From an uncultured virus (IMG/VR IMGVR_UViG_2643221865_000004) (taxonomy: Duplodnaviria > Heunggongvirae > Uroviricota > Caudoviricetes), in the IMG/VR virus record IMGVR_UViG_2643221865_000004: 64,000 nucleotides of DNA; one strand, 5' to 3'. Positions within the stretch are counted from its first letter, which is position 1. Every line of letters begins with the position of its first letter. This document shows positions 24,605 through 33,711 of this stretch, piece after piece. Made by a program: the position numbers and the translations under genes. Under the pieces are notes generated by a model, which was not told the DNA's origin, searched no databases, and saw only the letters and a list, made by a program, of their open reading frames with translations.

Positions 24605-27400
24605 ATGGCCTCAAAACCCCGCGCCGCGCGCCAGCATGCCGTCGACCCTGCCCTCTGGGGCAAGCTCGGCAAAGCCCCGCACGCCCCATACCCTCTGATC
24701 AAGCATTCGCTGGACACGTCCGCGGCTGCTTTCGCCGTCTGGGATCTGTGGCTCCGCTCTGGCCTCCGTGCGCTCCTCACCGAAGCGCTCGCCCCCGGGC
24801 AGCCCGGCAAGGCACGGTCGATGTTCGCTGCTCTCGCCGGCGTCCACGACATCGGCAAGATCAACGTCGTCTTCCAAGGACAGCTCGGCGCTGAAGGGTC
24901 CGACTACTACCGCGGTGACTTCATCGCCGACCACCTTGCAGCCCTGGCTGCAGCAGGGTACGACACCGCCGCTCCGAAGAACGGACGCATCGGCGGAGAC
25001 CTGGACCTGGACGGCCCGGCCGGCCGAGCCGCCCGCCGCCACGAAGCCCTCACACTGCTGGTCGTCGCCGGCGCCTGGCCGGGGAAGTTCGACAAGGTCG
25101 CGGACAGCTGGGCTGCTGCAGTCCTCGGGGCGCACCATGGCCGGTACCACCCGAACGACGCGTCCTTCGATCAGGAGCACTCTCGTGCCGGGTTCGGCAT
25201 CGACAAGAAGCTCGCCCAGTTCACCGCCGGTCGCTGGGGCGAGCAGCAGCAAGCCCACATCCACGCCGTCTGCGACGCTGCCGGCGTCGCCCCGGCGGAC
25301 CTCCGCACGCCACTGCACGCCCACGGGTCCACCGCTGTCATCCTCCTGTCCGGGCTGGTGTCCCTCGCCGACTGGGTCGCATCCACCGGCCGCACCATCA
25401 GTGGTGGCCGTAACGCCGCCGCCGACCCGGTCGTTGACCCTTCCGGGTATCTGCAGGAACGCACCGGTGACCTCCCCGCCATCCTCACCGCCACTCTCGG
25501 CGTGTACCAGGACATCAAGGACCCGGTCGCGGATGTGATGCGTAAGCACAAGGACAACCTCAGCCCGCTGCAGAAGCAGTCGTTGACGGTCGGGCGTGGG
25601 TTGTGGGTGGTGACTGTCCCTGCCGGTGACGGGAAGACGGAGGCGGCTCTGCTCCGCCATTCGAACTGCCCCGGTGAGGGTCTGCTGTTCGCGTTGCCGA
25701 CTCGTGCGACCACGGATGCGATGTGGGTCCGTGTGCGGAGGACGTACATGCGCACCCCGAACTACGCCGCCATCCTGCACGGCCACGCCCAGCTGAACTC
25801 GTTCTACGCCCGCCGCGCTGACCAGCGCGTGCACGTCGTCGATGACGGCTGCTCCGGCGATCACGGCCTTACCCCGAACGACTGGCTGACCGGTTCCGCG
25901 ACTGCGCTGCTGGCGCCGTTGAGCGTGTCCACCTGCGACCAGGTGCTGCTCGGTTCGTTGGCGCAGCGGCGTTCGTACATGCGGTTGACGGCGATCGCGA
26001 ACCGTCACGTCGTCCTCGACGAAGTCCACACCTATGACACCTTCCAGGCGTCCCTGCTGGAGCAGCTGTTGGCCTGGTGCGGGAAGACCGACACCCGGGT
26101 GACGATCCTCAGCGCTTCGCTTCCGGAGTTCCGTCTGCAACGGTACTCGGACGCGTACGGCGGCACCGCCCCGGAGCAAGCCATCTACCCCGGCACCACG
26201 TTGGTGACGTCGGAGCTGACGACACAGTCGGAGGTGAAGTCCCGCCGTTCGTTCGACCTGCAGTACCGAATCCACAACATCCCCGCGAAGGGTCTGGTGA
26301 GCAAGCACGTCCAGCTGGCCCTGCACTACCGGCGGGAGTCCGCCAACGCCCGCATCGGCATCGTCGTGAACCAGATCGACCGCGCCCAGGAGATCGGTGA
26401 GATCCTCGCCGTGCAGCACGGGCAGCGTGTCATCGTCATGCATTCGTTGATGGGCGCCGGCCACCGAAAGCTGATCAGCGACGAGCTGGAGCTCCGCCTC
26501 GGACCGGATTCGACGGAGGGCGGACTGATCGTCATCGGAACCCAGGTGATCGAAGCGTCCTTGGACATCGACTTCGACTGCATGATCTCGGACCTGGCTC
26601 CCGCTCCGTCGCTGATCCAGCGTGCCGGCCGCATGTGGCGCCATTCCGAACCGACTGACGGTGTGTGGGACCATGTCCGACCTCGCCGCGGTGACAACCC
26701 GGTGCTGGACATCCTCTGCCCGTTGGATGACGCTCACCGGGACACACTGTCCCCGGTCGCCCGGTACCCGTACCTGATGGCTGAGCTGAAGCGCACGAAA
26801 GCGTCGCTGGAAGCTCGCGACGGTATCGTCGCCATCCCCGAGGATGTGCAGGCGCTGGTGGATGAGTCCGCGATCACCGCCGAGGAAGCGGAGTACGAAA
26901 CCCATGTGTCCGCGGAGGACGAGAACGACGAGTACTACGAGGAGCTCCGCCGGAACCGGAAGGCCGGCAACGTCGTCATCCCGTTCCGCGGCCAAGGCCA
27001 CAACCGTCCTGTCCTCTCTGACGAGCTCGACTACCTGACGCTGTCGAAGACCACCACGAAGCATGACCTCGATGAGGCTGCGACCCGGTTCATCGACCAG
27101 GACCAGGAGACGTTTGTGATGGTCGACCCGAACGGCGTCATCCCGTTTGCGTGGGTGGGAACCGCTGAGGAGGCGATGGAGGCGACGGGCGAGAACGCCC
27201 GTGAGCTGCTGAAGTCGACGTTCACGATGACCCGGAAGCGCTGGAATCACCTGCCGGAGCTGGTGGAGCTGATCGAACCGGACGACTGGGTTCCGGCTTC
27301 GGCTGCGTTCCGTGGCGTGCGGGTGGTCACGCTCACAAACCCGGAGCTCTACTCACCTCTGCTGGGGCTGCTGAGGTCCCGTCCGGTGTTCTCCGACTGA
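24605..27400 (+). CDS. cas3: CRISPR-associated HD nuclease/SF2 helicase Cas3 (type I-E)
   Basis: HD motifs HSLD, HDIGK, AHHG, LADW; helicase motifs GDGKTE, LPTRAT, DEVH, SAS, TQVIEASLDIDFD, QRAGRMWRH. Confidence 0.92.
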   Translation: MASKPRAARQHAVDPALWGKLGKAPHAPYPLIKHSLDTSAAAFAVWDLWLRSGLRALLTEALAPGQPGKARSMFAALAGVHDIGKINVVFQGQLGAEGSDYYRGDFIADHLAALAAAGYDTAAPKNGRIGGDLDLDGPAGRAARRHEALTLLVVAGAWPGKFDKVADSWAAAVLGAHHGRYHPNDASFDQEHSRAGFGIDKKLAQFTAGRWGEQQQAHIHAVCDAAGVAPADLRTPLHAHGSTAVILLSGLVSLADWVASTGRTISGGRNAAADPVVDPSGYLQERTGDLPAILTATLGVYQDIKDPVADVMRKHKDNLSPLQKQSLTVGRGLWVVTVPAGDGKTEAALLRHSNCPGEGLLFALPTRATTDAMWVRVRRTYMRTPNYAAILHGHAQLNSFYARRADQRVHVVDDGCSGDHGLTPNDWLTGSATALLAPLSVSTCDQVLLGSLAQRRSYMRLTAIANRHVVLDEVHTYDTFQASLLEQLLAWCGKTDTRVTILSASLPEFRLQRYSDAYGGTAPEQAIYPGTTLVTSELTTQSEVKSRRSFDLQYRIHNIPAKGLVSKHVQLALHYRRESANARIGIVVNQIDRAQEIGEILAVQHGQRVIVMHSLMGAGHRKLISDELELRLGPDSTEGGLIVIGTQVIEASLDIDFDCMISDLAPAPSLIQRAGRMWRHSEPTDGVWDHVRPRRGDNPVLDILCPLDDAHRDTLSPVARYPYLMAELKRTKASLEARDGIVAIPEDVQALVDESAITAEEAEYETHVSAEDENDEYYEELRRNRKAGNVVIPFRGQGHNRPVLSDELDYLTLSKTTTKHDLDEAATRFIDQDQETFVMVDPNGVIPFAWVGTAEEAMEATGENARELLKSTFTMTRKRWNHLPELVELIEPDDWVPASAAFRGVRVVTLTNPELYSPLLGLLRSRPVFSD

Positions 27401-27441
27401 GCATTCCAACGCTTTTGCCGCATTCCGCACATGAGGGGTAT

Positions 27442-28332
27442 ATGACTTCTCCGCTCCCTTCCCTGTTCGCCGTCCGCGTCGACGAGCTGAACCGCTTCGT
27501 CAACGACCACGGCCGCCTCCCGAACTCCCAGGTCGGCGACACCGCTGAAGCCACCCTGGCGAAGTGGTGCCAGGCGCAGCGGAACCGAACCGAAGGCCGT
27601 CTCGGAACCATGACCGACGCCGAAGCCGACGCGCTCGAGGCGATCCCCGGCTGGTACTGGCAGGCCCCGGACGGCAGCACCGTCTGGAAGGACCGCCTCG
27701 CCGAACTGCAGGCGTTCGTCCTCACCCACGGCGACATCCCCCGCCGCCGTGGCGACACCGCCGCTGAGAAGTCACTCGCCAACTGGGTGCGCGTCCAGCG
27801 TGCCAAGAAGACCAACCCCGAGACCGTCGGCACCCTCACCGTCGAGCAGTCCGACGCACTGGAGGTGATCCCCGGATGGTGGTGGTCCGGCCAGCCGACC
27901 TCAACGTTCAAGTCCGCCGCCGACGACCTGCTCGCTTGGGTGAAGTCGACCGGCACGTTCCCGAAGGAGTACACCACCGACAAGGAGGAGCGCCGCCTCG
28001 CGTCGTTCGTCACCCGGTACCGCGACTCCTTCCGCGCCGGCACCCTCGGCCGCCCTCAGGCGGAACAGCTGGAAGCCATCCCCGGCTGGGACTGGCAGAT
28101 CGCCCCCGCCGAGCAGTGGTGGGACACGTTGATCTCCGTCGCAGCTTGGGTGACCGAGAACGGACGCATCCCCCGCGGCAAGTGCGACGACGAGACCGAG
28201 CGCAAGTTCGGTCGCTGGTGCGAGCACGCCCGCCGTGCAGCGAAGCCCGGCTCCGCGTCCACCCTGAAGATGACCGACACCCGCCGCCGCGCCCTGGAGG
28301 CTTTCATCCCCGGATGGTACTGGTCCAAGTGA
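27442..28332 (+). CDS. Helicase-associated (HA) domain repeat protein (4 repeats)
   Basis: Four ~70-aa repeats: L..FV..HG..P......E..LA.W...QR......L......LEAIPGW.W. Confidence 0.8.
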   Translation: MTSPLPSLFAVRVDELNRFVNDHGRLPNSQVGDTAEATLAKWCQAQRNRTEGRLGTMTDAEADALEAIPGWYWQAPDGSTVWKDRLAELQAFVLTHGDIPRRRGDTAAEKSLANWVRVQRAKKTNPETVGTLTVEQSDALEVIPGWWWSGQPTSTFKSAADDLLAWVKSTGTFPKEYTTDKEERRLASFVTRYRDSFRAGTLGRPQAEQLEAIPGWDWQIAPAEQWWDTLISVAAWVTENGRIPRGKCDDETERKFGRWCEHARRAAKPGSASTLKMTDTRRRALEAFIPGWYWSK

Positions 28333-33661: not shown

Positions 33662-33672
33662 CTGCAGGCATG

Positions 33673-33711
33673 AAGAAGCCCCGCCCGGAAACATCCGAGG
33701 CGGGGCTTCTT
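33673..33711. terminator. Bidirectional intrinsic terminator ending the cas operon
   Basis: AAGAAGCCCCGCC...GGCGGGGCTTCTT between convergent genes. Confidence 0.8.

Follow-up and report, generated by a model that had tools for sequence, protein, structure and literature searches.

On a spacer of 20 nucleotides (nt), the type I-E effector complex of Escherichia coli (Cascade) has the composition (Cse2)1(Cas7)4, and interference in vivo persists with spacers of more than 20 nt, according to the portion of the report that is available (PMC5159557). Huge phages often lack Cas1 and Cas2, have compact CRISPR arrays and sometimes carry spacers against host genes; the examples in the accessible part of that survey (sigma-70 and glycyl-tRNA synthetase) are single genes, matched with at most one mismatch (PMC7162821). 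Here, we describe a CRISPR-associated (cas) operon of type I-E on a DNA stretch of 64,000 nt from an uncultured virus (IMG/VR record IMGVR_UViG_2643221865_000004, Caudoviricetes), which is called the window. The window corresponds to C5:509971-573970, where C5 is a contig of 701,121 bp. The locus is a real, conserved and unusual I-E derivative. What is new and most interesting is its putative guide, which looks like the consensus of a host protein-family motif.

In our preferred reading (probability about 0.5), this is a derived I-E interference module without working adaptation on a phage-like element, and a fixed, distant mini-array guides a shortened Cascade and Cas3 to host genes for ATP-binding cassette (ABC) ATPases. 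The positions of all features are collected in Table 1.

Table 1. Features of the cas locus, its surroundings and the mini-array. Positions are those of the window unless C5 is named; aa, amino acids; E, expectation value.
Feature	Position	Strand	Evidence and remarks
DinG-like helicase gene (Helicase_C_2)	20796..23147	-	Pfam; 67% identity to the syntenic gene of Agromyces humi
DUF4190 membrane protein gene	23940..24560	+	directly upstream of cas3; syntenic in A. humi, 36% identity
cas3 (HD nuclease and superfamily 2 helicase), 931 aa	24605..27400	+	PADLOC Cas3e E 1.1e-133; Pfam Cas3_HD E 2e-33
CGCACATG motif	27426..27433	+	9 nt upstream of the start of the HA-repeat gene
HA-repeat gene (four helicase-associated-domain repeats), 296 aa	27442..28332	+	Pfam HA E 3.7e-32
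cas8e-cas11 fusion, 689 aa	28329..30398	+	Cse1 E 2.6e-23 and Cse2 E 3.8e-08 in one frame; GTG start overlapping the stop of the HA-repeat gene
cas7e, 406 aa	30395..31615	+	Pfam Cas_CT1975 E 2.5e-55, 188.9 bits
cas5e, 232 aa	31612..32310	+	NCBIfam casD_Cas5e 95.3 bits (cut-off 68.95)
cas6e, 184 aa	32307..32861	+	PADLOC Cas6e E 4.8e-25; Pfam CRISPR_assoc 81.6 bits
cas1-like gene, 266 aa	32861..33661	+	NCBIfam cas1_ECOLI 68.2 bits (cut-off 215.6); PDB Cas1 8hi1 E 2.1e-12
GC-rich terminator-like hairpin closing the operon	33673..33712	+	read directly from the sequence
Mini-array, two I-E-type repeats and one spacer	C5:470343-470421	cas-operon strand	64 kb upstream of cas3, outside the window

A distant mini-array as candidate guide source

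An ordinary array was detected neither in the window, in line with the preliminary description of this DNA, nor elsewhere in the genome (TRF, Rfam and our own scans). That description had listed a distant or mini-array among the possible guide sources, and such a structure was found. The genome was searched with the pattern [CT]C[CT]CCGC-N4-5-GCGG[AG]G[AG]T[AG], for which the stem and the handle were taken from the repeats of relatives. The only match is at C5:470348, and its strand is that of the cas operon. Another unit, identical in its stem, follows 48 nt downstream, and after it comes a strong GC-rich hairpin. The spacer between the two units has a length of ~19-23 nt (19 nt with the canonical 5-nt repeat prefix).

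The genome of A. humi ANK073, which carries the only related locus of the same architecture among those compared (see below), has four matches to the pattern, all in one cluster and nowhere else; the reversed control gave 0. This cluster consists of five good units and a decayed sixth one, with periods of 51-54 nt. Its spacers (S1 to S5) are 22-24 nt long with the canonical 5-nt repeat prefix. For the spacers of both elements, complementarity to targets runs to 21-24 nt. Both clusters begin 10-25 nt past the stop codon of orthologous genes, and both precede a glutaredoxin/NrdH-like gene that begins MTVTVYTKPSCVQC. An alignment of the seven units shows no variation in TTCTCCGC and GCGGAGGT; six of the units have the handle GATCC(A/G), while the loops vary in sequence and length. 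The complete repeat handle of 8 nt is GUGAUCCG. The first repeats of C5 and A. humi agree at 27 of 28 bases, and 17 of 22 spacer positions are conserved in both elements. The same repeat core builds ordinary I-E arrays with a 61-nt period in IMG/VR and metagenome contigs (L059, L065, L073, L074 and L090), which argues that the repeat of the mini-array is a true I-E repeat.

With a covariance model of the seven units, only the two known units were recovered on C5 (43.3 and 29.9 bits); the next match (21.7 bits) looks unrelated. Five weaker matches on C5 (19-22 bits) were dismissed because neither a second unit nor a motif-like spacer follows. Other repeats were rejected as arrays. These include seven tandem 56-nt copies directly upstream of a tRNA-like sequence (C4:683647-683983) and, on C6 and C7, repeats within coding sequence. 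The pattern has 37 matches in metagenomes, most of them in coding sequence that reads 'AEVI' by chance.

It may be that the mini-array has nothing to do with the cas operon and is instead a decoy (an anti-CRISPR RNA directed at I-E systems of hosts), a terminator cluster in a 3' untranslated region (UTR) or a fossil. The operon would then be guide-less, decaying, or borrowing CRISPR RNAs (crRNAs) from any host that the element enters. The array and the cas genes are 64 kb apart, nearby Microbacteriaceae have canonical I-E arrays with similar repeats that are open to decoy mimicry, the minimum free energy fold pairs the two units with each other instead of forming two local hairpins, and solitary repeats exist in other contigs. 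We nevertheless regard this possibility as unlikely. The exact repeat type occurs only in the two genomes with this cas variant, and in the same context, and its handle and stem are conserved while its loops drift. Neither a decoy nor a terminator needs spacers with nucleoside triphosphatase (NTPase) motifs in a fixed phase after GAC. Moreover, cas genes belonging to the present host itself were not found, and the six cas frames of the operon are all intact and overlapping.

Two observations on related hairpins were made in metagenome contigs. Six contigs (L062, L070, L076, L077, L078 and L081) have a solitary I-E-type repeat, GTGCTCTCCGC(G/A)CAGGCGGAGGTGATCCG, in a conserved non-coding context, and the 50 nt that follow it are identical in all six. 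This solitary repeat may be a regulatory RNA. A 42-kb contig of lower GC content (L091, match at 4392-4415, minus strand) has three degenerate I-E-like hairpins at spacings of 49 and 62 nt, which immediately precede the start of a gene; judged by this arrangement, it is another candidate short-spacer mini-array.

The guide resembles the consensus of an ATPase motif

The C5 spacer (GAGCCAACCACAGCCCTGGAC) translates to EPTTALD, which is the Walker B/D-loop of ABC ATPases minus its Asp. In the I-E Cascade, positions 6, 12 and 18 of the guide are flipped out and unpaired, and mismatches were counted ignoring these positions. The C5 guide has 60 non-self sites at up to three mismatches, compared to 0-21 for 20 shuffled versions. 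Most of them read (L/A)DEPTxxLD, on the sense strand and in frame.

The contigs other than C5 contain 77 sites that encode the motif DE[PA][TSM]xx[LIVM][DNH]. The seed GAGCCnAC is exact in 53 of these, GAC precedes the site in 73, and 37 are within three mismatches of the guide. C5 itself has two chance matches to the motif and no true ABC site. From the consensus of the 77 sites, the C5 guide differs at 2 of the 18 paired positions (both being near-ties) and at all three unpaired ones; among the 77 natural sites, no more than 3 are equally central. When all 1,402,202 21-mers of C5 are ranked by the number of such sites, that of the guide comes first (37 sites; the runner-up has 5). It starts at the base right after the repeat handle, which had been located independently.

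Two spacers of the A. humi cluster also encode Walker B motifs (S2, EPTKALD; S3, EPTRGID). S3 has four sites with one mismatch in the genome that contains C5, all reading LDEPTRGIDVG. In the A. humi genome, the non-self sites at up to two mismatches number six for S3 and seven for S2, the reversed controls giving none in both cases. S1 is antisense to the Walker A motif GPNGAGK(S/T), and its best six matches are all such sites; GAC (11) or GTC (6) precedes 17 of its 30 matches, and in the A. humi genome it has 9 sites compared to 3 for the control. S4 matches an FtsK/EccC-like ATPase of A. humi at 'FVD|YKGGSAF' with one effective mismatch, directly after GAC. Thus, the identified Walker B and FtsK/EccC-type targets follow GAC, and the Walker A sites mostly follow GAC or GTC. 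In each of the three independent target classes, the spacer phase places positions 6, 12 and 18 on wobble bases (1 in 27 by chance). Differences between a spacer and its best target fall on these positions in 7 of 11 cases.

Judged by its matches, the guide looks like a consensus of a host protein-family motif and points at the host chromosome, not at competing elements. A role in competition between elements, as considered in the preliminary description, is thus disfavored. It would require that the guides are aimed at rival mobile elements or incoming DNA with ABC-type or FtsK-type ATPase genes (e.g., conjugative elements with FtsK-like translocases). The match of S4 to an FtsK/EccC-family motif would agree with this, and inter-element competition is the role usually proposed for CRISPR systems of mobile elements, at least in the available parts of two accounts (PMC7162821; PMC11656645). 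However, these guides have matches of no lesser quality in dozens of genes on the host chromosome, so that the host could not be spared, and no specific rival target was found. We consider this very improbable.

A regulatory function without cutting is a more serious contender, even if a doubtful one. With a crRNA-like RNA from the mini-array, whose guide is short and imperfectly matched, Cascade would occupy all or a few of the ABC ATPase genes and prevent their transcription, but Cas3 would not be licensed. Transport or efflux of the host would be shut down for as long as the element resides in it. In the accessible parts of the reports, mini-arrays that have degenerate repeats and are partially complementary to their targets are described as widespread in I-E, I-F1 and I-B loci and in phages (10.1101/2023.03.03.530964; 10.1101/2024.10.29.618823). 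The variable repeat loops are as in other mini-arrays, all host matches are imperfect, and the element is tolerated by its host. On the other hand, the operon is headed by an intact cas3, kept at 63% identity in A. humi, and complementarity spans the whole 19-24 nt instead of just a short seed. The guide corresponds to the sense strand of many unrelated ABC genes, and no promoter is matched. An autoregulatory target was also not found: there is no match near the cas promoter that extends beyond the seed, and for the three seed matches located up to 12 kb from the locus, complementarity ends with the seed.

Composition of the cas operon

Seven forward-strand genes are located within 24605-33661. 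Their identities were derived from Pfam, NCBIfam and PADLOC, which agree and bear out the gene content and order given in the preliminary description. This is the only locus in the genome with a cas7 or a cas3 gene, each being present once. The five junctions downstream of the HA-repeat gene overlap as GTGA, ATGA or TGATG. These overlaps and the closing hairpin had been noted previously and are indeed present.

Cas3 scores 157.6 bits with cas3_core of NCBIfam (cut-off 102.45), and its motifs HDIGK, GDGKT, DEVH and QRAGR are intact. Cas6e, when aligned with 11 relatives, retains the conserved (catalytic) His and the C-terminal G-x-G-R-x-K-x-F-G-C-G loop. Based on these residues, interference and crRNA processing look retained, as had been proposed.

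Cas8e and Cas11 form a single protein. The Cas8e part matches CRISPR_Cse1 of Pfam with 83.3 bits (cut-off 24.7), but only over the N-terminal 200 of 450 model positions, and stays under the NCBIfam cut-off for casA_cse1 (41.8 bits, cut-off 70.05). The Cas11/Cse2 domain at its C-terminus reaches 34.3 bits (Pfam cut-off 24.6). A separate Cas11 gene was not found, there being no second Cse2 gene in the locus, and the fusion joint has no in-frame ATG or GTG as an inner start that could release free Cas11. Five protein families place the locus in type I-E, whereas three features that define the type are missing, namely Cas11 as a protein of its own, a Cas1-Cas2 module, and an array of 32-nt spacers next to the cas genes.

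The HA-repeat gene had been proposed as an extra subunit gene. This assignment could not be upheld, and the gene product is probably not a Cascade subunit but a member of an element-wide paralog family. HA repeats (PF03457) have 24 matches in ~9 frames of this genome, all of them on C5 and none on the chromosome. These frames are located in the region 316.6-424.9 kb of C5, in addition to the gene in the window. The repeats are absent from 14 control genomes, and the syntenic position in A. humi is occupied by an unrelated gene of 229 aa without Pfam family.

The CGCACATG motif upstream of the HA-repeat gene, reported previously, is present. The window contains eight copies of it (3.2 are expected, and 4 of 100 shuffles attain eight), at positions 9263, 23117, 27426, 32247, 55889, 58519, 61764 and 63010. 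Several copies are located 9-26 nt upstream of start codons, on either strand. The motif may be an element-specific promoter or a 5'-UTR signal.

Loss of adaptation

The gene cas2 is absent from the whole genome of 4.54 Mb, as had been stated for the locus. Of the two Cas2 families, PF09827 has no match and PF09707 has one sub-threshold match (E 0.73), which is inside a 639-aa frame on the contig C7 and is not credible. A conventional but split system, with a normal I-E array and cas2 elsewhere, had been considered, and neither component was found in the genome.

The designation of the last gene as cas1-like stands insofar as its product matches Cas1e models. The match is, however, restricted to the C-terminal two-thirds of these models, its score (Table 1) is far below the cut-off, and there is no match to Cas1 of Pfam. 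The protein and its A. humi ortholog were aligned with 12 canonical Cas1e proteins from related array-bearing loci. L-R-G-x-E-G, L-G-I-I-H-x-G and F-D-L-A-D are conserved in all 12. In the protein from the window, the Glu is replaced by Asp and the second Asp of F-D-L-A-D by Ser. That from A. humi also has Asp for the Glu; it has Cys in place of the second Asp and no longer has the His. Both proteins lack the C-terminal 35-40 residues. The altered positions correspond to what we take to be the metal-binding residues of E. coli Cas1. Since cas2 is missing and the Cas1-like protein is devoid of conserved active-site residues, adaptation is considered to have decayed, with no working adaptation module predicted, in agreement with the preliminary description. 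The two Cas1-like orthologs are still 44% identical and of equal length despite their active-site losses, so that the protein seems to be retained for some non-catalytic purpose.

Relatives of the locus

Approximately 85 relatives of Cas7 were found at 34-51% identity, mostly from Micrococcales, followed by a gap to ordinary I-E Cas7; the closest ones are 46-51% identical. An alignment-based search was needed, as scans of viral and genome collections with the single Cas7 sequence gave no match. Of 40 loci from species-representative genomes, 39 have canonical or fragmentary I-E content, and many of them have arrays with a 61-nt period and repeats like CTCTTCCCCGCGCACGCGGGGGTGTTCCC.

The remaining one, from A. 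humi ANK073 (L012), shares the architecture of the window. The same gene order had been suggested as something to look for in relatives. Identities are 63% for Cas3, 43% for the full-length Cas8e-Cas11 fusion, 51% each for Cas7 and Cas5, 46% for Cas6 and 44% for the Cas1-like protein. No array was found within 21 kb of these cas genes. According to tblastn, synteny also covers the neighboring helicase gene (67%), that for the DUF4190 protein, the thymidylate synthase gene (79%) and the diphosphohydrolase-like gene described below. Given the shared cas architecture and the flanking synteny, A. humi carries a related element.

The fusion protein has seven other full-length clusters (667-704 aa) among 1.84 billion representatives, after which there is a sharp drop to unfused Cas8e. 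Named relatives come from Agromyces sp. NPDC057679 (on a 447-kb contig) and Frigoribacterium sp. SL97 (on a 3.7-Mb contig); further members are encoded on contigs from JGI, ENA and Logan. The fusion was not found in 400 other genomes sampled from the same order or in IMG/VR, and a scan of metagenomes with the fusion alignment gave no relative.

The carrier element

C5 is a separate giant phage-like extrachromosomal element, as judged from its length (701 kb), its GC content of 65%, its 43 tRNA genes and tmRNA, and its phage-type replication genes. The GC content is ~65% throughout (64-67% in every 1-kb bin except the last), compared to 68-69% for the other large contigs (the 6-kb contig C3 has 63%). 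Most of the tRNA genes and the tmRNA are within one 17-kb cluster. The contigs other than C5 total 3.84 Mb of the genome, which is 100% complete. Seven genomes from the same genus have 3.2-3.8 Mb, and none of them has a Cas7 relative.

A PHROG scan was applied to 174 C5 proteins of at least 280 aa (97 + 77 of 182 selected); its set excluded the cas genes and several window genes that had already been scanned (8 references in all), proteins below 280 aa and those spanning borders of 20-kb chunks. Matches include topoisomerase II, ribonucleotide reductase, a DnaE-like polymerase, enzymes of NAD salvage, RtcB, RNA ligase, a DarB-like antirestriction protein, Hoc-like immunoglobulin (Ig) proteins, an integrase, transposases and a ParA-like protein. 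Capsid, portal and terminase were not among the matches of these 174 proteins; there were only the Hoc-like Ig domains and weak P-loop matches to terminase. Phage_capsid and Terminase_6C of Pfam have no match in the whole genome. C5 is either a giant phage with unrecognizable virion genes or a new kind of megaplasmid.

The window also encodes thymidylate synthase (39903-40703, plus strand), NAD ligase and a protein with the N-terminal domain of dATP/dGTP diphosphohydrolase (57350-58504, minus strand). The latter is presumably of the MazZ type, which belongs to phages with aminoadenine genomes. This gene and that for thymidylate synthase are both syntenic in A. humi and hint that the element may modify its own DNA; such a modification could also shield C5 from its own nuclease.

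The divergent neighbor of the cas locus, the DinG-like helicase gene, is kept in synteny. Among the cargo of the window is a GH5 cellulase with a cellulose-binding CBM2 domain (52982-55060, minus strand), which is unusual for a phage-like replicon. Approximately 16 kb upstream of the window, at C5:493900-494300, there are at least seven copies of (C/G)ATGTAA(A/T)CCGGTGGCGC. This irregularly spaced cluster was rejected as a CRISPR array; it resembles iterons or an array of protein-binding sites and may function as an origin of replication or in partition.

Proposed mechanism and its implications

We propose the following sequence of events for the preferred reading, in which the mini-array guides Cascade and Cas3 to host ABC ATPase genes. 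The gene upstream of the mini-array probably supplies the transcript as its 3' UTR, as there is no room for a leader. Cas6e would cut it at the repeat hairpins, and the resulting crRNA of ~48-52 nt would assemble a shortened Cascade with ~4 Cas7 and a single Cas11. Such a short guide and shortened complex would explain why Cas11 is fused to Cas8e. The near-consensus guide (D|EPTTALD) would pair with dozens of host ABC ATPase genes, at sites after GAC. The array itself would be spared by its own flank, which is CCG or CCA. In the least certain step, Cas3 would be recruited and would shred the host chromosome at many sites during an active phase of the element. The presumed target, an essential motif present in many copies, cannot be mutated away, so that no spacer acquisition would be needed; this fits the loss of cas2 and the dead Cas1.

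It is tempting to go further and to speculate that this is an innate, germline-encoded CRISPR weapon. One or a few fixed consensus guides against unmutable, multi-copy NTPase motifs (Walker A or Walker B of ABC ATPases, or FtsK/EccC) would be phased by wobble positions and would use an Asp or a Ser/Thr codon as protospacer adjacent motif (PAM). The shortened Cascade would then direct Cas3 to dozens of chromosomal sites in any host of high GC content, and destruction of the chromosome would serve takeover and the supply of nucleotides. This extension is tentative, and we place it well short of even odds.

Several points weigh against the proposed mechanism. The first ones concern the mini-array. 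Its lone pattern match in the present genome is at chance level (~1.5 are expected, by estimate), so that it gains its weight from the cluster in A. humi and from what the spacers encode. It is far from the cas genes, and its transcription, its processing and its recognition by Cas6e are putative. Others concern the guides. No host match is perfect, the best ones having one effective mismatch (three sites), and the A. humi spacers find only sites with one or two mismatches in their own genome. The match count for S1 is within that of shuffled sequences (30 compared to 1-77), and S5 has no target in either genome. S2, S3 and the C5 spacer resemble one another and may thus count as one evolutionary event. 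When only wobble positions are considered, 7 of 10 differences fall on positions 6, 12 and 18 (4.3 are expected), which is suggestive but weak. To our knowledge, GAC has not been described as a PAM of type I-E, and the Asp codon by itself accounts for its constancy.

The final points concern the element. A lytic phase of C5 is unproven, as no capsid, portal or terminase was found on it. The host carries C5 in a finished assembly, so that a constitutive host-shredder is impossible and tight control must be assumed. The tolerance of the host points to such control, or to binding instead of cutting.

If the guide works as its sequence suggests, this would be CRISPR without memory, with a hard-wired guide directed against the motif of a protein family instead of one particular invader. 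Escape by point mutation would be practically closed, and one guide would serve for many hosts. This would be a new targeting logic for CRISPR systems of mobile elements and would explain at once why adaptation was lost, why the spacers are short and why Cas8e is fused to Cas11. In practice, a compact Cascade that combines a guide of 20 nt with a fused small subunit could serve as a tool. For other cas loci without array on large elements, a replicon-wide check with the repeat patterns of relatives is worthwhile.

Comparison with known systems

Canonical I-E systems (E. coli K-12 and Thermobifida fusca; the nearest are the Microbacteriaceae loci L013-L016) share all Cascade families and Cas3 with the C5 locus, in I-E order. 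The repeat also has a 6-bp GC stem, a loop of 4-6 nt and an 8-nt 3' handle like that of the neighbors' CTCTTCCCCGCGCACGCGGGGGTGTTCCC. In the C5 locus, however, Cas8e and Cas11 are one protein, cas2 is absent, Cas1 appears dead and there is no leader-fed array. The repeat period is 48-54 nt instead of 61 nt, and the guides have 19-24 nt instead of 32-33 nt. They are conserved between elements and match host genes.

The regulatory mini-arrays of I-E and I-F1 systems (such as CreA of CreTA) resemble that of C5, as far as they are described in the accessible part of Shmakov et al. 2023 (10.1101/2023.03.03.530964). They consist of two to a few degenerate repeats apart from any normal array, their spacer is fixed, adaptation is lacking and the match to a cellular target is imperfect. 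In that account, they are located inside the cas locus, with short complementarity to the promoter of cas or toxin genes. The C5 mini-array, in contrast, is 64 kb away, is the only candidate guide source of its system and matches a coding motif of ~77 genes.

The available part of the survey of huge-phage CRISPR systems (Al-Shayeb et al. 2020, PMC7162821) reveals common features with C5: a giant element, loss of Cas1 and Cas2, compact arrays and some spacers against host genes. C5 differs in that its guide is a candidate family consensus against a multi-copy motif, and no virion genes were found on it, while these are recognizable in the phages of that survey.

A derived effector, fused subunits and reduced or absent adaptation are also reported for the variants I-E2 (Cas5-HNH), I-E3 (Cas11-PD-(D/E)xK) and I-E5 (CRISPR-associated transposon) (Makarova et al. 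2025, PMC12669027). Unlike these, the C5 locus has no extra nuclease or transposon and has kept Cas3. In the sections of that classification available to us, none of the three is described as a Cas8e-Cas11 fusion with a dead Cas1, and the literature searched yielded no description of guides aimed at Walker motifs or of this fusion variant.

The stoichiometry predicted here, (Cse2)1(Cas7)4Cas5Cas6e, is that of the E. coli Cascade on shortened spacers, as given in the accessible part of Kuznedelov et al. 2016 (PMC5159557). Such shortened Cascades have so far only been made in the laboratory, the E. coli complex being an engineered construct. The predicted C5 complex would be their natural counterpart in a fixed version, with a single Cas11 tethered to Cas8e.

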